From a virus (lineage: Duplodnaviria > Caudoviricetes): 64,000 nucleotides of DNA. Position numbers and translations under genes: made by a program. Location: positions 1-64,000 of the IMG/VR virus record IMGVR_UViG_3300021255_005861; one strand, written 5' to 3'. Under the pieces are notes generated by a model, which searched no databases, had not been told where the DNA came from, and was given only the letters and a program-made list of their open reading frames with translations. Positions 1,334 to 42,800 of this stretch are shown one piece after another (positions within the stretch are counted from its first letter, which is position 1; the number at the start of each line of letters is the position of its first letter).

Positions 1334-1966
1334 ATGACACAAGAAGAACTAAACAAGATCGTCGAACAGCACCAACATTGGCTCAAAGAGGACTGCGAAG
1401 GCTGGGAAGATATGAGAGCCAATCTCGCGGGCGCCAATCTCGCGGGCGCCAATCTCGCGGGCGCCAATCTCGCGGGCGCCAATCTCGCGAACGCCAATCT
1501 CGCGGGCGCCTATCTCGCGGGCGCCAATCTCGCGAACGCCAATCTCGCGGGCGCCTATCTCTCGGGCGCCTATCTCTCGGGCGCCAATCTCGCGGGCGCC
1601 AATCTCGCGAACGCCAATCTCGCGGGCGCCTATCTCTCGGGCGCCGACAAATTCCGTCTTGGCAAGATGCTAGACGAACCGCTGACGGGCTACAAGAAAA
1701 CGACTGAAGGCGTGGTCATTACAGCAGAGATTCCCGCAGGCGCCATCGTGTTCTCCATCAACGGCAGCAAGTGCCGGACGAACCGGGCGAAGATTACCGG
1801 TATGGACGGACACGAAGTCCTGCACTCAAGATATGACAATTCATTCGAATATCGCCTCGGGCAGGAAATCGAAATAAAGGACTTCAACCTGATGTATAAC
1901 GTGGAGTGTGCCAGCGGGTTCCATTTCTTCAGGACTCGTAAGGAAGCGGAGGAATACAATAGATAG
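1334..1966 (+). CDS. pentapeptide-repeat protein with conserved phage C-terminal domain
   Basis: about 15 A(N/Y)L(A/S)(G/N) repeats; C-terminal GYKK...KCR...ECASGFHFF. Confidence 0.9.
1418..1645 (+). repeat. 15-bp coding tandem repeat (GCCAATCTCGCGGGC)n
   Basis: directly visible; encodes the pentapeptide repeats. Confidence 0.95.
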
Positions 1967-1979
1967 GAGGCCTTGTAGT

Positions 1980-2267
1980 ATGGATATATATGAAGAGGCA
2001 CGCAGGCGCATCGCCGAGGGGTCCGTGGCTACGACCCCGGCTGACGCTAGCCGGACTAAAGTCAATTACAAGCGGTTCTACGAGGCCCACCGCGCCGAGC
2101 AGGTGCGGAGGATGTCCTTGAACAACAAGGAGTTCTTCCTGCGCTGGGGCGTCAGCCAGTCCGCGTGGGCGAAATGGCTCAAGCGCTACAGGGCAGGTGA
2201 GTTCAAGGACGTGCCCGCCAAGTACGCGGGCCTGGTCGAACTATATAGGCTCGAAGGGAGGTTGTGA
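1980..2267 (+). CDS. hypothetical protein, possible HTH DNA-binding
   Basis: RWGVSQSAWAKW HTH-like segment; AGGAGG upstream. Confidence 0.55.
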   Translation: MDIYEEARRRIAEGSVATTPADASRTKVNYKRFYEAHRAEQVRRMSLNNKEFFLRWGVSQSAWAKWLKRYRAGEFKDVPAKYAGLVELYRLEGRL

Positions 2268-2268
2268 T

Positions 2269-2592
2269 ATGGCCAAGGTGATAGACGTGGATCTCGCGTC
2301 GGCTAAGTTCAAGGAAATCGCGGAAGCCGAGCGTAGCAGTCGCCTGCAGTGGTCGCGTACCCTGTGGCGGCTCCGCTGGCATTATGCCTGCAGGATGTAT
2401 GACCTGTTCGAGGCGCTGGAGTTCCGAAACGCCCCGTACTTCTACACGGCAGACGCTATCGGCCCGAGCATGGTCCGTATGGACCGCTACAAGAAGACCC
2501 CGCGGGAATGGATGGACGTGTGGATGGACGTGTCCGAGAGGATATTGAAGAAACTCAAGGAGGTCAACCGTGCGAACCCGGAAGATGAATAG
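2269..2592 (+). CDS. hypothetical protein
   Basis: GGAGG RBS, operon packing. Confidence 0.65.
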   Translation: MAKVIDVDLASAKFKEIAEAERSSRLQWSRTLWRLRWHYACRMYDLFEALEFRNAPYFYTADAIGPSMVRMDRYKKTPREWMDVWMDVSERILKKLKEVNRANPEDE

Positions 2593-2992
2593 GCAGGCGG
2601 TTATAGCCCTTCTCCAGCGGGAGCGGGGCACGGTCTACGGGCGCTACTCCGGGGACGAGGCGGCTGAAGTGTCCGCGATGTACGACTACGTAATCGACGT
2701 GATGGACAGGGCGATGCTGCAGAACCGCACCGGTAAGCTGGTGCGCATGGCCGACGGCACGCGCAAGTGGTTCCCGAACAAGGAGGCGCGGAGGATGCTG
2801 AAGCGCCCCCGAGAGGAGCGGTATACCGAGGCCGGGTCCGTGTGGGGACTGGAGAAATGCAGGGAGAAGAGGTGCCGGTACGGGGACTGCAAGGCGTACT
2901 GCGAGAAGCACACCGCGTGTATTCACTGCGAGGACGCATGGCTGTTCGGGGCTATGCCGGACAAGGACTGTTTCGAGGTGGCCGGAAAATGA
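2570..2992 (+). CDS. hypothetical protein, Cys-rich C-terminus
   Basis: ORF in operon. Confidence 0.6.
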   Translation: MRTRKMNRQAVIALLQRERGTVYGRYSGDEAAEVSAMYDYVIDVMDRAMLQNRTGKLVRMADGTRKWFPNKEARRMLKRPREERYTEAGSVWGLEKCREKRCRYGDCKAYCEKHTACIHCEDAWLFGAMPDKDCFEVAGK

Positions 2993-3068
2993 AAGGTTTT
3001 TATATCTATCCAAATCCTGCATTTGAGAGGGCTTTAAAACGATTTTGGAAGAAATGGAAGGAGGCTAG

Positions 3069-3305
3069 ATGACGAACTTCAATCATTGGCAGCAGACCGC
3101 TCCCGAGAAGTACCGGGCAGCGAAGCCCGAGGACCTTATCGTGGATCGCGGAGAGGTGGACGAGACGGAGGAGTTCCGCTACATAGCGCGGATAGACTGT
3201 TTCGAGTGCCCCTGTCATATCCAGTGCCATAGCAATCACGACATGTGGCGCGGGTGCTCGGAGATATTTCTAGAGTGGGCAAAGGAGGAAGTATGCTTAC
3301 AGTGA
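3069..3305 (+). CDS. hypothetical Cys-rich protein
   Basis: GGAGG RBS; CxxCPC motif. Confidence 0.6.
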   Translation: MTNFNHWQQTAPEKYRAAKPEDLIVDRGEVDETEEFRYIARIDCFECPCHIQCHSNHDMWRGCSEIFLEWAKEEVCLQ

Positions 3306-3459
3306 ACTACCCACCGCCTTTTGTAAAAGGCACGAACGGCGATGCCGTTGTTACGAAGTATGCCGAGCTCGTGGCTTTCCCGGACACCGACTTTGAGGTC
3401 TGTGCCGTCCACATCCCGATCCGCTTCTGCCCGTTTTGTGGCAGGCCGATGAAATAATT

Positions 3460-3546
3460 CTTATTTATTTCTTACAAGCGTATCCCGTCACGGAAAATTA
3501 GTTATATTTTTTTTGGTAAACCAAAACCACAGAGGATAGCACAATG
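3460..3546 (+). promoter_or_regulatory. phage promoter/leader motif copy 2
   Basis: CTTACA 3471-3476, N24, GTTATATT 3501-3508, GAGGATAGCACAATG 3532-3546. Confidence 0.8.
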
Positions 3547-3638
3547 AAGAAACAACCCGTATTTAGCGCCCCGATGCTCATTATCCGGGGCAACGAACTC
3601 AAGGTAGCACGCGTATGCATACCCGCAAGGAGGGCATA

Positions 3639-4208
3639 ATGGCCACTATCAAGTTTATCACCGAGCCCCTCCAGCAGTACGTCACCCGCACCAAGACCAA
3701 GGACATGGTCTACGCCCGCACCTCTTACACCTGCCCCCTTTGTAAGGTGTCCGTGAGTAACCGCGAGTTCCTCAAGCACGTGGAAACCACGCACGCACTC
3801 CGCAAGGACGAATGCTTCGCCATGCTCTACGGCGTACCGTTCCCCGCCCGTTGCACCTGCGGGAAGGAACTCCACTACAGCGAGTCGCATCACGGATTTC
3901 CCACCTCCTGCGGGAACTGCGCCACGGGATGCACGTCCAAGCTGAACTACAAGAACGCCGATGACGCCCACAAGCACGTCGAGCAGCTCGAGGCCTTGCT
4001 TGCGCAGGCCAAGGAGGAGGAGAAGCGCCTCAAGCAGGAAGCCGAGCTCTCCCGCATTCCGCTCGCCGACCTCCCGTATCCTACGAAGAAGGATACCCGT
4101 TTCCTCAAGCGCCTCGCCATGTCCATCCGCACGTACGCGGTAAACTGCGAGAAGGAGAAACTGCAGGAACTCGCCAACGTCATCGACGCCAAGGTGGCTT
4201 CCCTATGA
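3639..4208 (+). CDS. zinc-finger protein with coiled coil
   Basis: CPLC...HVETTH (C2H2) and CTCG...SCGNC. Confidence 0.7.
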   Translation: MATIKFITEPLQQYVTRTKTKDMVYARTSYTCPLCKVSVSNREFLKHVETTHALRKDECFAMLYGVPFPARCTCGKELHYSESHHGFPTSCGNCATGCTSKLNYKNADDAHKHVEQLEALLAQAKEEEKRLKQEAELSRIPLADLPYPTKKDTRFLKRLAMSIRTYAVNCEKEKLQELANVIDAKVASL

Positions 4209-18525: not shown

Positions 18526-19455
18526 ATGCCATTAGTACGATACAGCGTTTCAGATGAAATGTGGAACAATGAAGTCAACACGTTCACTGACATAACTAAC
18601 AGGATACTCAAAGTACATGGACAATATAAGGGTACCGCCCTGTTCAGCGATGACGGTTTGCCCCAGATCCCTATAACCAACAAGCAGTGGTGCCAGTGGA
18701 TACACTACGAACACGACGAGCAGACCTTTTGGTTCAGGCCCCGCACGAAAATAACACCGCTGGGATACCTCGCGAAATACACATTCGGCCCGCCAACGTC
18801 GGTTACCGTGGCCAAAGCTATCTGCTGGAACGCCGCCGTATATATCCATACGTTCAAGAAGCCTATAGGAACTGATTCCGTTCGGAAGGCAATGAAGCAG
18901 GCACTGCTGGATTCGAGTTGCCCCGACAAGCTGTTCGACGTCATAGCGGAATGCGCTAACCGCCTCTGCCATGTCTTGCTGGACGCCGTAAGCAGCGAAA
19001 CCGGGGAAATAAACCGCGGAGCCCTATATCTCCTACAAAACGACCTGCAAGAGCGTCTTAAACGTCGCAACTGCGTGAATAAGAGCCTGCGGCGTAATAT
19101 ATGCGAGCGGCTCGTGGTAGAGGGGATTGCGGCAAAGAAAACACGTACAGAGCAGCAGAACATGATCCGCCGTGCGGTCATAGCCGAACCTAGGCTAAAG
19201 AAGCAGGCCGTCCGGGCAATAGAGAGGATGCTTTCCTCCGACCCGAAACTCCTCAAGCTGAACGGTGGCGTATCCTTGCTCCTTCCATACACAAAAAGGG
19301 AGATATCCGATATAAGGAAGTGCTACAGCGCCAAGGCTGAAAAGTTCAAGATTTACGACCGGGTGGAGCTTATTAAGGACAAGTTGAGGCGTCGTGTATC
19401 TCTTACTAGCGCAGAGCGTGTATTTAAGTGCAGGCATAAGAAACTATTTCTTTGA
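18526..19455 (+). CDS. basic hypothetical protein, candidate replication initiator/origin-binding
   Basis: K/R-rich, lower GC, followed by ~1 kb non-coding repeat-rich DNA; the function is inferred. Confidence 0.55.
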   Translation: MPLVRYSVSDEMWNNEVNTFTDITNRILKVHGQYKGTALFSDDGLPQIPITNKQWCQWIHYEHDEQTFWFRPRTKITPLGYLAKYTFGPPTSVTVAKAICWNAAVYIHTFKKPIGTDSVRKAMKQALLDSSCPDKLFDVIAECANRLCHVLLDAVSSETGEINRGALYLLQNDLQERLKRRNCVNKSLRRNICERLVVEGIAAKKTRTEQQNMIRRAVIAEPRLKKQAVRAIERMLSSDPKLLKLNGGVSLLLPYTKREISDIRKCYSAKAEKFKIYDRVELIKDKLRRRVSLTSAERVFKCRHKKLFL

Positions 19456-19497
19456 TACACAACGAATTACGTAAGCAATTATTGCATACAAATGATA

Positions 19498-19562
19498 AAA
19501 ACGTTACACATGAGGCGTCACGCGGTAAATTAAAGTTACTGACGCTTGATGTGTAACGTTTT
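19498..19562. repeat. long inverted repeat
   Basis: AAAACGTTACACAT (19498-19511) / ATGTGTAACGTTTT (19549-19562) plus inner GCGTCA/TGACGC. Confidence 0.9.
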
Positions 19563-19710
19563 GATACTCGTTCCCCCTACCATATTCCCATATTCCGTAT
19601 GCGACGCTCCGCATCGCCATACGAGCATTTCCCTCTTTCGGGTAGTGCCTACGGCACATACCCATGTTCAATACCTCATTCGGAATATTCCGCGTATCGC
19701 GTATATGCGC

Positions 19711-20455: not shown

Positions 20456-21058
20456 ATGGCAAAGCACGTTAAGCCCTACATCTACTGGACCGCCGAGGAG
20501 GACACGATACTCCTACAAGGCGGCACACCCGAGAACCGCACCGAGAGCCAGTGCTACACCCGCGCGCGCAAGCTCGGCATACCCCGCTGCCGAAAGCCAA
20601 AGCCCCACTGGACTTCTGCCGAGACCGACCTGCTCCGCAAGGGCATACTCCCCGAGGGCAGATCCCCAACCGCCGCATACGGCTACTGCATCCTGCACGG
20701 CATACCGCCAGTCCCCACCTGGCGACCATACCTCAACCTCATCCCCGAGTGGTCCGAAACCGAACTCGAGGCCGTCCGCTCCGGGTGCGTCCCCCCAGGC
20801 CGTACCGCCCGACAGTGCACCTACGTGGCCACCAACGTCCTCCACGAGGACTTCGTGCCTGCAGACCTTCCCCCGCTATCCACCGAGGACGAGATAGCTA
20901 TACGGGCCATCCGCCTCGCCAACGACGGCTTCCCGATGTCAGCCCTCGCCAAGGCCTTCCACGTCACCCCGCGCGACCTCGCCAACATGGTTGCCAACCT
21001 GCGACGAGTCGTCCTCCGACGGGCCAAGGGCAAGACGAAAGCAAAATGTAACATTTAG
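20456..21058 (+). CDS. tandem Myb/SANT-like repeat protein with C-terminal HTH
   Basis: three W(T/S)xxExxxL..G..P.GR repeats. Confidence 0.75.
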   Translation: MAKHVKPYIYWTAEEDTILLQGGTPENRTESQCYTRARKLGIPRCRKPKPHWTSAETDLLRKGILPEGRSPTAAYGYCILHGIPPVPTWRPYLNLIPEWSETELEAVRSGCVPPGRTARQCTYVATNVLHEDFVPADLPPLSTEDEIAIRAIRLANDGFPMSALAKAFHVTPRDLANMVANLRRVVLRRAKGKTKAKCNI

Positions 21059-36603: not shown

Positions 36604-38061
36604 GTGAACTACCCACAGCCTAAAAGGCTGTGAGCTTCGAGTTTTCGCTTCGACGGAGCCACTTGTACTAACCCAGCAGAACTGGGAAGCATAGAGGAGG
36701 CTACCTCAGCGGAGGCGTGTTCCACGCACTCAGCACGTTTAGTCGTGCCAAACAAAAGTACATTACAGGCGGAATGCCAGTCTCTGGGCTTGGTGTATCC
36801 GCAATCACAATGATATGTGCGTTCATCCAACCCAATCTGATTGACTGCACCGCATACCGGACACATCTTGGTTGTCGGCAACCACTTTGACAGCACGAAT
36901 GCACGGTCTGCCTTGGCCAGCATCTTAATGCGCTGTTTAAGGGCACCCATGCAAGAGTGCTGGACTTGCTTGCCGAACCACGTCTGGTGCCAGTTATTGA
37001 TTTGCTCGTCCTGTATGTAGATGACATCGTAGTTGGACACAAGGTCGTGGTAGATTTTGTTGCAGATGTCCTTGCGGACATTCGCAACATGTTCATGCTC
37101 ACGGGCAAGCTGCTTCCTACAGTTCCATCGCCGCTTGGAGTCCTTCTCTTTCTTGTGCCTGTTTAGCATCTTGCTCAGGTACTTCAGGTACTCGGTTTCT
37201 TGCACTTTGCAATCGTAGGTCTTGTTGTCCGATGTCGTTATCGTGTTCTTAATGCCGAAGTCCAGTCCGACACTCTTGCGGGTGCGGTTCCTCGGTTCCT
37301 TCGGTAGCATTACGCTAATCTTTACGTAGTAGCCAGATGCCTTCCTGATTAGCTTGGCATCGGCTATCTCATATTCCTCAAACTCTATCTGATGCAACCC
37401 GTTCACCTTCAGCTTCCTGAATCCAGGAATTGTGATGTGGCTTGCATCCAGAATCTTCGTAAAACCCGTAATGATGGGGATGCAGTTCACTTCCGACTTG
37501 AACTTCAATGCACCAACCTTGATTCCTTTCTTCTTGGCTTTTGCAAGGTTGATGATGTCTGTCTTCTTCTGTGCCACGGTAGCTCTATGGAGCACTGATG
37601 GCAAAGTAATCGGTGAATTGACCGGTTTCTTGTCCTTGTCGTAGTGGACTACATCCTTGTGCTCGGTGTACTTGTAATCGAACATGCTGTTGTCTGGGTT
37701 ATCTTTCGACAAGGACAGCATGTCGTTGACTACCCACTTAGCTTCCTTGAAACATTGGGCCAGCTTCTCGAACACCGATTTCGGGTTGTGCCGTATAGAA
37801 ACTTTAAGCTCGAATACTCGGCATATCTGCGACTTACGACGGGCATGGGTCTCAGCCATGCTCGCCTTAATCCTTGCCTTCGTATCTTCGCTTCTTACCA
37901 GTTCCATATCAAGTTTCTTGACTATACTTATAGTTTAGACGGTTTACTCAATAAATATATCTATTTTTAACGGGTATGAAATGTTATTTATTTCTTACAT
38001 TTGCTATCGGCGGGTCTTACCCACGCCCTAAAGGGCGTGAGCTTGCGACCGCCTATTTGTC
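36604..38061 (-). mobile_element. IS200/IS605-family (IS1341-type, tnpB-only) insertion
   Basis: minus strand: TTTGA|CAAATAGG left end with hairpin CACGCCCTTTAGGGCGTG; right hairpin CACAGCCTTTTAGGCTGTG then GTAGTTCAC. Confidence 0.85.
36609..37907 (-). CDS. tnpB: TnpB RNA-guided endonuclease
   Basis: RuvC-I GLDFGIK, IQDE, CPVCG/CDCG zinc ribbon, RuvC-III RDWHSACN. Confidence 0.92.
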   Translation of the reverse strand: MELVRSEDTKARIKASMAETHARRKSQICRVFELKVSIRHNPKSVFEKLAQCFKEAKWVVNDMLSLSKDNPDNSMFDYKYTEHKDVVHYDKDKKPVNSPITLPSVLHRATVAQKKTDIINLAKAKKKGIKVGALKFKSEVNCIPIITGFTKILDASHITIPGFRKLKVNGLHQIEFEEYEIADAKLIRKASGYYVKISVMLPKEPRNRTRKSVGLDFGIKNTITTSDNKTYDCKVQETEYLKYLSKMLNRHKKEKDSKRRWNCRKQLAREHEHVANVRKDICNKIYHDLVSNYDVIYIQDEQINNWHQTWFGKQVQHSCMGALKQRIKMLAKADRAFVLSKWLPTTKMCPVCGAVNQIGLDERTYHCDCGYTKPRDWHSACNVLLFGTTKRAECVEHASAEVASSMLPSSAGLVQVAPSKRKLEAHSLLGCG

Positions 38062-38144
38062 AAACGCCGATATCAGTTCCTCGTGGTTCATTCCCGTCCA
38101 TTTCACGGCCTTTACGGCCATATTTTTAGTATGCACTACCATCC

Positions 38145-39215
38145 CTACCCCCGTAGCCTTCTAAGCCCGTACAGCGCGATCCAAAGGGCGTAGATGAGCA
38201 GCCCGATGAGGCACCACCCGGCGCAGGGGATCTGGAGCACCACATACGCCTTCTGCCACCCCATGAAACCCGATATGGCCAGCAGGACGAAGAAGATGAC
38301 GCACCACCCGAAGGCGCCTCGGAGGAGCTTCTCGAAATCCCCGTCCGTCACTTTACCACCTCCACGGCGCTCTCGGTGCACACGTGCGCCTGGTAGCCCG
38401 TATATACGAGTATCCCGAGCAGGAGTGCGAGCAGCACCCCCATGAGGGCTATGTATGCGTTCATTATGCGTTTCTCGCGCTCTATCGTGCCTATGGCGAA
38501 GTCGGTTATCCGCTTGGTTTCCTCCGCCAGTTCGTTGATTGCCTTGATGTTCTCGTCCGTCATTTGGCCTCCTTGTGCTCCTCCACGAACTGGAGGAAAT
38601 ATTCCTTTACCAGTTCCATGTACCCTGCCGTGAACTCCAAAGGCACCATCCCGAGCGATATCCTTCCGCTCTTGGCGTAGTACGTAGCCGAGTAGTTCTC
38701 GTCCCCCTTCTTCACGAACATCCACAGCTCGCGGGGGTCGTCCCCGTGCATTATCACGGACATATCGTCGTCCCGGTACGCTATCTCGGCGCAGGCCGCG
38801 TCGTATATCGCCTTGACCGCCTTGATGATCAACGGCTTGAGGGCTCCGTATATCTCGTCATCTGTGACGTCGTAGCACTTCTTTCCCGTCACGACCTCGT
38901 AGTGCTGCTCACTGTATACCCGGATGAGTACGATGGGGCGGGTGTCGTTCCACCTGTAGCGGTACGAGAGGTAGTCCTTCCCGTTGTGGTTGACGTCGGG
39001 GACGAGGTCCGTGGTGTTCAGCGCCTCGGATATGTCCTTTATGATGGTCTCGGGGGTAATCATTTGCGCTCCTCCCAGTGGTTGGGCTCGCCGCCCTTCG
39101 AGTTGGCCTCCCACGTGCTCTTGTGGTTCTGTAGGAGTTCCTGCAGGCGTGGGTCCAGCGCCATGCGGTACACGCTGGGGCGTTCTTTCGGTAACTCTAT
39201 GTATTCTTCGCTCAT
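38145..39215 (-). CDS. four small hypothetical genes, two with TM helices
   Basis: coupled ORFs ending at 38145, 38348, 38560 and 39060. Confidence 0.55.
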
Positions 39216-39553
39216 TGTTTCAACCTCGCAGTTATAGTTATCTCCATGGCAGGCATAGTGATGCCGGTGCCCTTGCAGTACCTCTTGAGGAAGCGGTAGT
39301 CGATGGCCCCGATACCTCTGCCTATGCTTAGCCTGCGCATCACGTCGTCGTAGCGTTCCTTCTGCGAGGCATAGTGGGCGGAGCGCACGGGCTTCTCCAC
39401 CACGGACACCTTCTCGTGCGCTATCCCGTGCTTCTTGCAATAGCGGAGGTAGAACTGGTAGTCTGCGCTCGACAGCCCGGTAGACCCGGACGTGAGGATG
39501 TTGCGGATTTCCTCGTAGCGGGTAATCGTATTTCGGGTGAATGACTTTTCCAT
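39212..39553 (-). CDS. small basic protein with a duplicated domain, adjacent to the 33-bp array
   Basis: RYEEIRNILTSGSTGLSSADYQFYLRYCKKHGI / RYDDVMRRLSIGRGIGAIDYRFLKRYCKGTGI. Confidence 0.7.
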   Translation of the reverse strand: MEKSFTRNTITRYEEIRNILTSGSTGLSSADYQFYLRYCKKHGIAHEKVSVVEKPVRSAHYASQKERYDDVMRRLSIGRGIGAIDYRFLKRYCKGTGITMPAMEITITARLKQ

Positions 39554-39577
39554 AGTTACTCTATAGCAGACCCTTGG

Positions 39578-39806
39578 TATCAAATGTGCATAACGTTTGA
39601 TATCGGGTTTTATCAAATGTGCTTGCCGTAATTATTATCAATTATCAAATGTGCTTACCGCTTTCATTATCGCTTTATCAAATGGACATAACGTTTTGAT
39701 AATAGTAATTTCAAATGTGCATAACGTTTGATAACTCCTATTATCACATGGGCATAACGTTTTGATATTGGGGATTATCAAATGTGCTTATCATTTCCGT
39801 TATCAC
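39578..39806. repeat. array of seven ~33-bp units with TATCAAATGTGC core (iteron-like)
   Basis: units start at 39578, 39611, 39643, 39676, 39709, 39742 and 39776. Confidence 0.92.
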
Positions 39807-42800
39807 TTCCCGAAGTAGCACAGCACCGACCTGCCCATGAAGTAGAGCAGGTAGAGTACCGCGGGGATGTACACGGCCAGTACGGCAATGGCCATAACGG
39901 GCTTTTGCACGGACTCGGCTATGCGGTCGCAGAACACGATGCACAGGTAGGCCGTGAGCGCCAGGGCTATCTCGTTCAGGCTCATGCTCCCTTCAGTGCC
40001 TTCCGCACCCTGCAGTGGATGTCGAACGGCAGGTCGGGGTCCATGCCCGACGGGAAGGGGCTATAGTAGCCGATCCGGTAGTAGAGGTCGGGGTGCTTCC
40101 ACCCGAGGGTACGCCAACGCTCCTGGACCGCTATGGCCAATGCAACGGCAATGGTATCCACGTCGTCCGCGGACGGGGCGTTAATGGTACTGTAGGGCAG
40201 CGTGTAGGTCACGTCACCAGTATCGCTGTCCTTTATCTCGTAGTAGAAGATGTGCGAGTTGTCGATTATCATGGGGATATCTCCGTTTGTAGGGGGGTGT
40301 AGAGTATGCTATGGCGATGCGTTCCTGCCATACGCGTTCCTCTAGGGCATATGCGACACGGCACCGACGGTCCGCCCTGCGGGCGTAGTGGGCGCTCCCT
40401 GGGTGGCAGGATGCCTCCATGCGGGCAATCCAGGCGTCCTTCGAGGCCTCTAAAAATACTTGTTTCAGGGTGTATATCTTCTTTTCCATATCGGTTGCGA
40501 ACTGGGCTTACTGTTTTAATTCCTCGTTTTTCAGCCCTTTTAAATATTCCGGATGTTTTGACAAAACTTCAACCTCGTGCTTTTCCTTCTCTTCTTGGGA
40601 CAAGAACGCGTCGTACGGGTCGCAAGCTGCCCAGTATTGTTCATAACTAGAGTTCATACTAACCTCCACCGTTAAATTCTAGATTCCCCCGGTTCGAAAA
40701 TCACACAAGTCGGCATAAACCGTAACGTTGCTGCCGTCGTTGTACTGTTCCATAGGTAAATGCCTCCAGGACACGTCTTCGTGTAGCACTTGACAACCCT
40801 CCTGCCGTCGGGCGTGGTTTGAACTATTCCGGTTTTCGTCACTTCTCGCCTCCCCAGTGGAGCAACTCGCGAACGTAGGAGCAGCGGACATTCGCGTGTT
40901 CCTCGCACATGCCGCAGTAGTAGCGTGCGTCTCCGGCTTCGTACTCCGCCGGCTTATTACACCCCGCAACGAAGCAGGTGTCCCCGGCATACTGGGGCTT
41001 CTTGCGCGCGTCACGGTATGCTTGGTATGCAGGAAAGGGTATCTCGTGTACGCGGACAACTTCCGCACGCAGTCTTTCCAGATCGTCCTCGGACAGGGCG
41101 TTGAAGGAGTCGTATTGGTCCTGGAACGGGATTTTCCGAAGTTCCGCTAGTTTCGGTGAGGTCATTCGTCGTATCTCTAGTTCACTACTGGTCTTGATTT
41201 TCATAGGGAGGTTTCCTTTTGTGGGTTGTCAATGGTTTCCTTAGTGGATCGAAGGTCACTTGCTAGTTTCCTCTTTTATGTACATGATTACCAGTCCTCC
41301 GAAGCGGGAACGGTCCGTGAGGTTCGCCCCGACTTGCCAGGGGACTTCTATCCGTACCGCACGTACGTCGTTGCCCGGATATCTTTCGAGGTAGGCGTCG
41401 ATGTCGCCGTTGATGTAGGCGTTGGCCTCCGCCTTGGCGCAGTCAATCAGCGGGTAGTTCCGTACGCCGCCGTGCCACTTGCGGGAGTCTATGTACGGCA
41501 GCGTGTCCGGGTAGCCCTTCAGATACTCCTTGTGCTTCCTAGCCACATCACCACGAAGTTCATCTCCGAGGTACGCTCCTTGATATACTCTACGTCCATT
41601 TTCTTGCTCATATCGCGTTGTCCTATAAAAAGTTGCACGGGACGCCCGGCCATCCACCTTGGCCTACTGGCTGCCGCTACGTACGGGACTCGCATCCCGT
41701 CTCGCGACCGCCGGGGCTCGAACCCTATTGTTTCAATGCGAACGCCACAGTGGATAGTGAGCGTCCCCAGGTTGTCTTCAACGTAAATAGCCCTGTTCCA
41801 CCTATGGAGTATTCCCCGCTTGAAAATAACGGGGTTCGGGTCAGCCGTTATCTTCTTTGCCGTGTCCAGGTAGGGTTCCAGGTAATGTAATTCGTAATGT
41901 GTGCTAGACTGCGATACGGTAATAAATCCCTTGCCTACATAGCGGACCACTCCGCATATCGGGGCATACGTGTGGTCCGTGATATGGGCTTTATGGGCAT
42001 ACGTCATAATGTCGCTCATTTCGGGGATTCCTATATGTATAATCGTTTCTCGCAACATATTACTTTAACGGTCTAAAAAATATCCCGCCTTCTTCGTTAG
42101 CAGAATCTATCAATTCCACGGGATAAATCCTGGGCTTTTCATTCGGGTTCGTAACCAGGCTCATAGCCAGGAATGCTTTTTCCCTTGCTTCAAGCAACGA
42201 ACAGGTGAACACCGTGCAGTCTTCAATCTTTTGGAACGGGGACGGCTTCCATTTCTTGTCAGCGTCCAGGTAGCTGCTTTTCCCGTCGCATTCCTTTACA
42301 AGAATGAAACGACGATTCGGGGGTTCAATGTTCAACGGGGCGTTGATTACAACCGCAGGCAGGTCTTCCATAGGACCGTCGGCAAACAAGATGGCTTGCT
42401 GCTTGTAGGTGCCGTCCGTAAAGTCCGCAGTAATCAAGTAGGTGTGCCAACCGATACGGCTGTCATCACAGTAGAAACGGCATTTGAGCGTGTCAAGGTT
42501 GAACGTGTCTTCATACACGTTCTTGATATGGTCTTTTAGTTCTTGAAGCGACTTGACTTCTACCATACGCTCCATAGATTCGTGGAGCGTGAAAAAACTT
42601 CCCGCAGGGCGAATACGCATTATTTCACCTCTTCTTTTAGATACATAATTGTCAACCCGCCAAAGCGGGATTTGTCCGTAAGGTTCGCCCCAACTTGCCA
42701 GGGGATTTCAATACGGACAGTCTTAATGTCGTTGCCCTTATATTCCTTGCAATAGCTGTCAATGTCATTATTGATAAACGTATTGGCTGCTTCTTCGGTG

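Follow-up and report, generated by a model that had tools for sequence, protein, structure and literature searches.

The stretch of DNA considered here, which we call the window, comprises the first 64 kb of the 185,666-bp IMG/VR virus record IMGVR_UViG_3300021255_005861, which derives from a large uncultured phage and carries a gene for a major capsid protein of the T4 type (Pfam Gp23 match at 58.2 kb). Two of its minus-strand genes, one for a protein of 60 amino acids (aa; 39803–39985) and one for a basic protein of 113 aa that we designate P0001 (39212–39553), are separated by a gap of 249 nt, which has a GC content of 33% in a genome of about 55% GC and is filled by an array of seven AT-rich units (window positions 39578–39804, minus strand). 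The relation between this array and the protein encoded beside it is the subject of this text. A preliminary description, made from the sequence of the window alone, had placed the array between minus-strand genes and directly upstream of the gene for the basic 113-aa protein, in agreement with the open reading frame (ORF) list.

The array, read here on the coding strand, was delineated by a core search, Tandem Repeats Finder (TRF), a position weight matrix (PWM) and comparison with relatives. The 12-mer core TATCAAATGTGC, searched with up to two mismatches, has seven sites in the window, at 39578, 39611, 39643, 39676, 39709, 39742 and 39776, giving unit-to-unit spacings of 33, 32, 33, 33, 33 and 34 bp, exactly those first reported for the array; TRF concurs, with a period of 33 in 6.4 copies (score 150) or a period of 66 (score 202). 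Unit alignment likewise bears out the earlier distinction between four palindromic units and three of a second type. The former, type 1 (units B, 39741–39767; C, 39709–39734; D, 39675–39701; and G, 39578–39602), read TATCAAA(A)CGTTATGCACATTTGATA(A) and form a near-palindrome with 10-bp arms, complementary at 9 of 10 positions, around a 5-bp centre. The latter, type 2 (units A, 39775–39804; E, 39642–39671; and F, 39610–39639), read GATAAYG..GGYAAGCACATTTGATAA, the left end being a direct, not an inverted, copy of GATAA. Every one of the seven shares the core GCACATTTGATAA, and the typical unit is semi-palindromic, about 28 bp long and separated from the next by a linker of 2–8 nt. No other non-coding array of this type is present across the 186-kb genome: a 16-bp core PWM gives the seven units 22–26 bits, and no other position exceeds 15.3 bits; this confinement to one locus marks the site as a single-locus target and not as that of a global regulator. 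A comparison at the DNA level with 50,697 phage records gave no match, and scans of the window for tRNAs and for Rfam families (at the gathering threshold) found nothing.

P0001 has an isoelectric point of 9.9 and is, as we argue below, a putative sequence-specific double-stranded DNA-binding protein built from two repeats. Self-alignment confirms the duplicated domain of about 33 aa that had been noticed at the outset: residues 12–44 align with residues 67–98 at a local score of 69, compared with 20.8 ± 4.2 for shuffled sequences, a score reached by none of 2000 shuffles. The AlphaFold2 model (predicted local distance difference test score, pLDDT, 75), in which each repeat runs from a long helix through a loop into a shorter one, extends the repeat further, so that the true unit of P0001 is, as modelled, a helical hairpin of about 45 aa. 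P0001 has no Pfam match at E ≤ 0.1, and neither it nor its nine neighbours match an initiator family of Pfam or PHROG; profile searches of PDB sequences with the alignments A2 and A3 returned nothing, single-protein and profile scans of IMG/VR found no relatives, and a feature search of the ESM atlas with P0001 and with its 168-aa neighbour gave scores of 0.76–0.78, which is the noise level. Structure searches with the models of P0001 and of the fused proteins introduced below (Foldseek against PDB, VIA-align wide and BFVD) gave no significant match, the rows returned being generic helical hairpins and weak HNH proteins only.

Further searches, among them a metagenome scan with the alignment A1 that gave four loci, yielded relatives with identities down to about 26–37%. 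The closest, two metagenome contigs (L016 and L017) whose protein is 96–97% identical to P0001, carry the same seven units as the window, and when the three are aligned, variation affects 7 of 195 unit columns, compared with 16 of 34 linker columns, indels included (Fisher p=1.9e-10). As judged from this alignment, the sequence of the units is constrained, whereas that of the linkers is free to change, and with it any reading frame. In a second clade, clade B (L006, L008, L018 and L019; 60–68% identity), the gap behind the 60-aa gene is again occupied, here by six to nine units of TTATCAAAATGAACGTACAAAATGATAA. These units retain the TTATC/GATAA ends and the 28-bp length, their centre differs and contains two direct CAAAATGA sub-repeats, and their spacing is irregular, at 25–60 bp.

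More diverged members of the family are accompanied by sites of other kinds. P0013 (L011) has four 30-bp units, GGGACAAAATGT..GACGAAATGTCCC, with new palindromic ends and two direct sub-repeats, placed two on either side of a GCTATACA element; P0016 (L021 and L022) has a 22-bp near-perfect palindrome, TTAGAAGATTATAATTTTCTAA, of which two copies upstream bracket TACTATG and a third lies just past the stop codon, beside a TTTTGCTATATT motif; P0017 (L023) has a 10-bp palindrome, TGTAATTACA, with three upstream and four downstream copies; P0015 (L024 and L025) has a site of about 29 bp on both sides, the upstream copies being direct and inverted; and P0008 (L009) has ATATTGCAAA three times around TTTTGCTATATTG. 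In six loci, repeated 9-mers cover more bases of the 280-nt stretch upstream of the gene than they do in any shuffle. The co-occurrence of array and gene in related phages, which had been put forward as a check on the array, is thus kept in most clades, with different sites; most of the diverged clades have their own repeated, mostly palindromic site beside the gene, two show it weakly and one (L010) is without an obvious repeat. A different site beside each clade of one protein family points to cognate recognition and argues against a host factor as the binder. For the same reason, namely that the site sequence changes with the protein clade, we rejected the units as boxes for the host factor DnaA, to which the best fit, by eye, was 6 of 9 positions.

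The company that the two-repeat module keeps in other proteins provides further context. It forms the C-terminal half of proteins of 235–401 aa (P0010, P0011, P0014, P0020, P0023 and P0030–36, found by profile and follow-up search), the N-terminal ~110 residues of which make up a conserved domain with an invariant HHR ... YY.RP..EL.F ... H..LH pattern. Elsewhere, the same N-terminal domain is followed by two to five Pfam NUMOD3 motifs (E down to 1e-24) in place of the two-repeat module, and a NUMOD3-like SxETRxKM stretch precedes the repeats in several family members. Since the module stands behind a domain that in other proteins carries NUMOD3 repeats, it occupies the place of nuclease-associated DNA-binding modules. 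P0001 itself fails to match a Pfam NUMOD model, and an hhalign comparison of A2 with a Pfam-annotated HNH_3 protein from the contig L013 was not significant. The genome of the phage itself holds the module in its free-standing form only, and NUMOD3 was not found in it, though control genomes likewise gave no match. One further gene of the window, at 18526–19455, encodes a product whose C-terminal 119 residues (189–307) align with the middle of the fused protein P0011 (E=2e-12), its similarity to the two-repeat profile being not significant; it is followed by an inverted repeat of about 25 bp, a long hairpin, one arm of which is the 13-mer TAACGTTTTGATA (19554–19566), identical to parts of two array units (0.01 such matches expected by chance). 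A functional link between this locus (18526–19566) and the array is possible on the strength of these matches. Two side observations belong here: on L013, a 90-kb phage contig, the 2.1 kb at 1882–4001, directly upstream of the gene for the fused nuclease-like P0035, hold no called genes or tRNAs, and the 129-aa P0007 combines 60 N-terminal residues that resemble, by eye, a nucleotidyltransferase (GSFNPVHLGH) with only the second repeat of a clade-B P0001 homologue and is either a chimeric gene or a misassembly.

The position of the sites relative to a putative promoter bears directly on what they might do. A −10-like element, TGCTATAGA (39560–39568, minus strand), follows unit G at 9 nt and precedes the ATG of P0001 by 6 nt; an mRNA started from it would be leaderless or nearly so. 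The element belongs to a putative phage promoter class of the form TTTTGCC-N4-TGCTATATT, that is, TTTTGCC-N4-(T/C)GCTATAtt, which a motif search found in 11 genome copies and in none of the shuffles: in the window at 21054 (+), 52823 (−) and 56061 (+), and in G000 at 78793, 131878, 135227, 137403, 139281, 145969, 152383 and 153168. Genes for a DnaB/gp41-like helicase, an SSB-like protein and a DNA methyltransferase are among those that it precedes, and several ORFs begin 4–10 nt past the motif, which suggests leaderless or near-leaderless mRNAs for them too. The clade-B orthologues have the full canonical motif directly past the last unit (...GATAA-CGG-ATTTTGCC-ACCC-TGCTATATG-AGTAAAC-ATG), and in L011, L021 and L009 the sites stand on both sides of the −10-like element, which, as far as the arrangement of motifs can tell, is the layout of an autoregulated promoter with its operator. 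In the window and in these relatives, candidate binding sites thus adjoin the putative promoter of the gene for the presumed binder itself. Tandem sigma-70 promoters inside the units were considered and rejected, as there are two 9/12 antisense matches only, no more than in shuffles; MotA (MotCF) was not found, though control genomes likewise gave no match. A second shared intergenic motif, made up of CTTATTTATTCCTTACA and, about 25 nt further on, GTTATATTT, occurs at about 43720, 47700 and 50920 of the window (minus strand), upstream of small minus-strand genes, and may represent another promoter class.

Taken as a whole, the conservation of the units, their co-variation with the protein and the module context make it probable, with good though not full confidence, that P0001 binds the units, which is the part of the preliminary proposal (phased iterons bound by the adjacent protein, marking an origin) that has held up; an origin is not established. 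The most likely job of the site array is transcriptional control at P0001's own promoter, and we put at about an even chance the fuller statement that the array is a set of cognate double-stranded DNA sites through which P0001 controls both this promoter and read-through transcription. Each unit of about 28 bp would offer two half-sites at its ends (TTATC...GATAA), to be read by the two homologous helical-hairpin repeats of one P0001 or by a dimer. As P0001 accumulates, it would coat the array and control transcription there, acting on its own promoter, directly upstream of which the array stands in a co-directional operon, while the array, coated at many sites, would act as a roadblock to transcription that reads through from the genes before it; control of this kind would set the level and timing of a module consisting of P0001 and the 51-aa and 168-aa proteins encoded after it. 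We infer the binding and its stoichiometry, and likewise the sign of the regulation, which may be positive or negative.

Several points weigh against this account. The number of sites, seven to nine, far exceeds the needs of simple autoregulation, and in the clade of the window all units lie upstream of the −10 element and none over it, this promoter motif being moreover derived from sequence only. The fold of P0001 matches no known DNA-binding domain (Foldseek against PDB, VIA-align wide and PDB profile), the matches of the fused N-terminal domain to HNH nucleases are weak and non-significant, and one diverged relative, P0012 (L010), has no clear repeat near its gene.

Many tandem sites upstream of the operon of their binder are familiar from plasmids, as in parC-ParR of R1, the ω sites of pSM19035 and sopC of F, where centromere/operator arrays serve both as operator and as scaffold for a higher-order nucleoprotein complex. 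The present case differs in that no partition NTPase family was found among the neighbours scanned here (Pfam and PHROG), and in that partition would be of no evident use to a virulent T4-like phage. Closer in setting are I-TevI, which represses its own T4 promoter via its DNA-binding domain (PMC2988022), and CapR, a repressor of the PLE satellite that derives from a homing-endonuclease domain (PMC8096241): in both, a nuclease-type DNA-binding module acts beside a phage promoter to control transcription, in or near T4-type phages, and for I-TevI the controlled promoter is likewise the gene's own. There, however, a single operator is used, whereas here there are seven to nine tandem sites, I-TevI keeps its nuclease domain, and the repeat of P0001 belongs to no recognised NUMOD or helix-turn-helix family. 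P0001 and its relatives would be a putative, uncatalogued family of small phage DNA-binding proteins with two helical-hairpin repeats and no relative in Pfam, PHROG or PDB, connecting free-standing regulators with nuclease-fused forms in large uncultured phages. The likely recognition sequence of each clade can be read directly from the neighbouring repeats, which would provide natural protein/site pairs for the study of specificity evolution and for orthogonal regulators, and the array supplies a concrete candidate for the role of iteron-like repeats in T4-type genomes, a question that is still open for T4 oriE (PMC3016281).

Among the alternatives, the one that survives best, although we consider it unlikely, is that the array is an iteron-type replication origin at which P0001 binds the units, bends or wraps the AT-rich DNA and promotes opening or primer formation, after the model of λ O at its semi-palindromic iterons or the proposal for the iterons of T4 oriE, with autoregulation as a by-product. 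Its attraction lies in the array itself: seven direct repeats at 32–34 bp, where at least three regularly spaced ones characterise iterons, make up 241 bp that stand out, at 33% GC, from a genome of 55% GC, at a unique locus with the binder gene adjacent, and the flanking promoter class is that found before the helicase, SSB and methylase genes. For comparison, the origins of T4 use middle-mode promoters and the iterons of oriE have an undefined role (PMC3016281), λ iterons are 19-bp imperfect inverted repeats present four to six per origin (PMC7466680) and those of PLE are semi-palindromes of about 30 bp (PMC8263062). The resemblance to λ O and to RepA of PLE extends to tandem semi-palindromic units of 19–30 bp located by or in the binder gene and to site and binder specificities that co-vary (PMC7466680, PMC8263062), and in the PLE/ICP1 case the domain of the binder also occurs fused to a nuclease (PMC8263062). 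λ O and RepA are, however, larger initiators with recognised domains, and their iterons are flanked by a distinct AT-rich unwinding region, whereas the binder here has 113 aa, no known family (Pfam, PHROG and PDB profile gave no initiator match) and no helicase-recruiting domain, and beside the array, itself of 33% GC, no separate AT-rich tract is seen that might serve as an unwinding element, nor are there DnaA boxes. The likeness to T4 oriE, namely direct repeats at even intervals in a phage of the T4 type, close to small early genes and to a skew change (PMC3016281), is offset by the fact that the oriE repeats are 12 nt long, with no dyad symmetry reported, and that their synteny is unlike that of the P0001 locus.

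The skew change proposed earlier holds in part. Hand counts had suggested an excess of C to the left of the array and of G to its right, with no change in coding strand, and an inflection at the array was expected from them. Within the minus-strand block at 34.5–44.6 kb, where the coding strand does not change, the best single breakpoint in G−C falls near 38.9 kb, at a distance of 0.7 kb from the array, with a shift from −0.052 to +0.009 per base, which fits those counts, and the genome-wide minimum lies in the same region (39–43 kb). The signal is nevertheless weak and broad: cumulative G−C over the whole record reaches its minimum at 43.1 kb, 3.5 kb off, on a flat plateau at 39–43 kb; skew in the phage genome does not follow the coding strand, and a crude ORF-based strand correction proved too noisy. 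The relatives also speak against an origin, as the spacing in clade B is irregular (25–60 bp) and the diverged relatives have only two to four sites, wrapped around a promoter; in addition, T4-type phages start replication largely by R-loop and recombination-dependent initiation (PMC3016281).

A variant that we regard as improbable would combine an origin with conflict between phages: the array and P0001 would be an iteron/initiator-like origin pair, the module of which was captured by nucleases of rival phages that cut such arrays, in an arms race like that of Odn, and, if true, this would explain the joint diversification of site and protein. Somewhat less probable still is conflict as such, in which the array is a target, a decoy or a protected site with respect to nuclease-fused P0001 relatives of competing phages, and P0001 shields it or competes for it. 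The precedent is that Odn and RepA share a DNA-binding domain and that Odn of ICP1 needs the PLE iterons to cut (PMC8263062); in our material, related phage contigs contain the two-repeat module in two forms, one free-standing beside arrays and one joined to a nuclease-like domain, site sequences change rapidly from clade to clade within a constant architecture, and the genome of the phage itself has the free-standing form only. The nuclease activity of the fused forms is, however, putative, and a specificity shared between a fused protein and any array is conjecture; furthermore, since selection would act against a target array that was not useful in itself, conflict presupposes either transcriptional control or an origin.

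That the units act as RNA, as tandem hairpins or single-stranded motifs that are processed to RNAs of about 33 nt or bind and sequester the protein, is very improbable. The array stands inside a co-directional operon and is therefore probably transcribed; yet the sense transcript folds no better than shuffled sequences (z=−0.3), and the better folding of the plus-strand, antisense RNA (z=−3.1) is due to the type-1 units, which form 10-bp stems with one G-U pair from arms specific to the window. No hairpin is present in three of the seven units; in clade B and L011, complementarity is retained in the outer 6 bp only; the P0017 site TGTAATTACA lacks a loop and hence cannot fold into a hairpin; and no Rfam family matches at the gathering threshold. 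The array of short hairpin RNAs offered earlier as an alternative thus finds no support, and the evidence points to cognate double-stranded DNA sites and not to RNA hairpins. Nor is it a CRISPR array, which would have unique spacers of about 26–40 nt and cas genes close by: the linkers of 2–8 nt are far too short, and the lone Cas12-like gene in the vicinity, 1.7 kb off and missing from that place in relatives with the array, is an IS605 TnpB.

The operator-like array and P0001 belong to a conserved module, 38058–39985, which takes in the 60-aa gene, the array and P0001, together with the 51-aa gene that overlaps it, the 168-aa gene and two small ORFs of membrane-like character, and which is kept in L006, L016, L017 and L019 while its flanks are rearranged. 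The stop codon of the 60-aa gene overlaps the first array unit; its hydrophobic product, conserved in L006, L016 and L019, is probably a two-pass membrane protein, as judged by eye, with a weak sub-threshold Pfam match. Downstream of P0001, the ATG of the 51-aa gene (39060–39215, minus strand) overlaps the P0001 stop codon (ATGA), which makes translational coupling probable, and a gene of equal size is called at this position in L006, L007 and L008. The 168-aa gene follows (38560–39066, minus strand), with no family found for its product in Pfam or PHROG.

The early region is mosaic around this module. On L016, a homologue of 44.6–46.3 kb is joined almost directly to that of about 40.0 kb, and the roughly 4.6 kb thereby missing (window 40.0–44.6 kb) consist of small early-type genes. 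On the other side lies the IS605-family tnpB gene (36609–37907, OrfB_IS605 and Cas12f1-like TNB domains), at the position of which (36609–38058) L016, L017 and L019 continue with a homologue of window 41.4–41.7 kb; this suggests an insertion or rearrangement boundary near 38058, and the absence of tnpB from its position in relatives that keep the array indicates that the array is not part of the TnpB element. Elsewhere in the window, at 1418–1645, there is a GC-rich tandem repeat, probably within a coding region, with 15 copies of the 15-bp unit GCCAATCTCGCGGGC at 90% matches.

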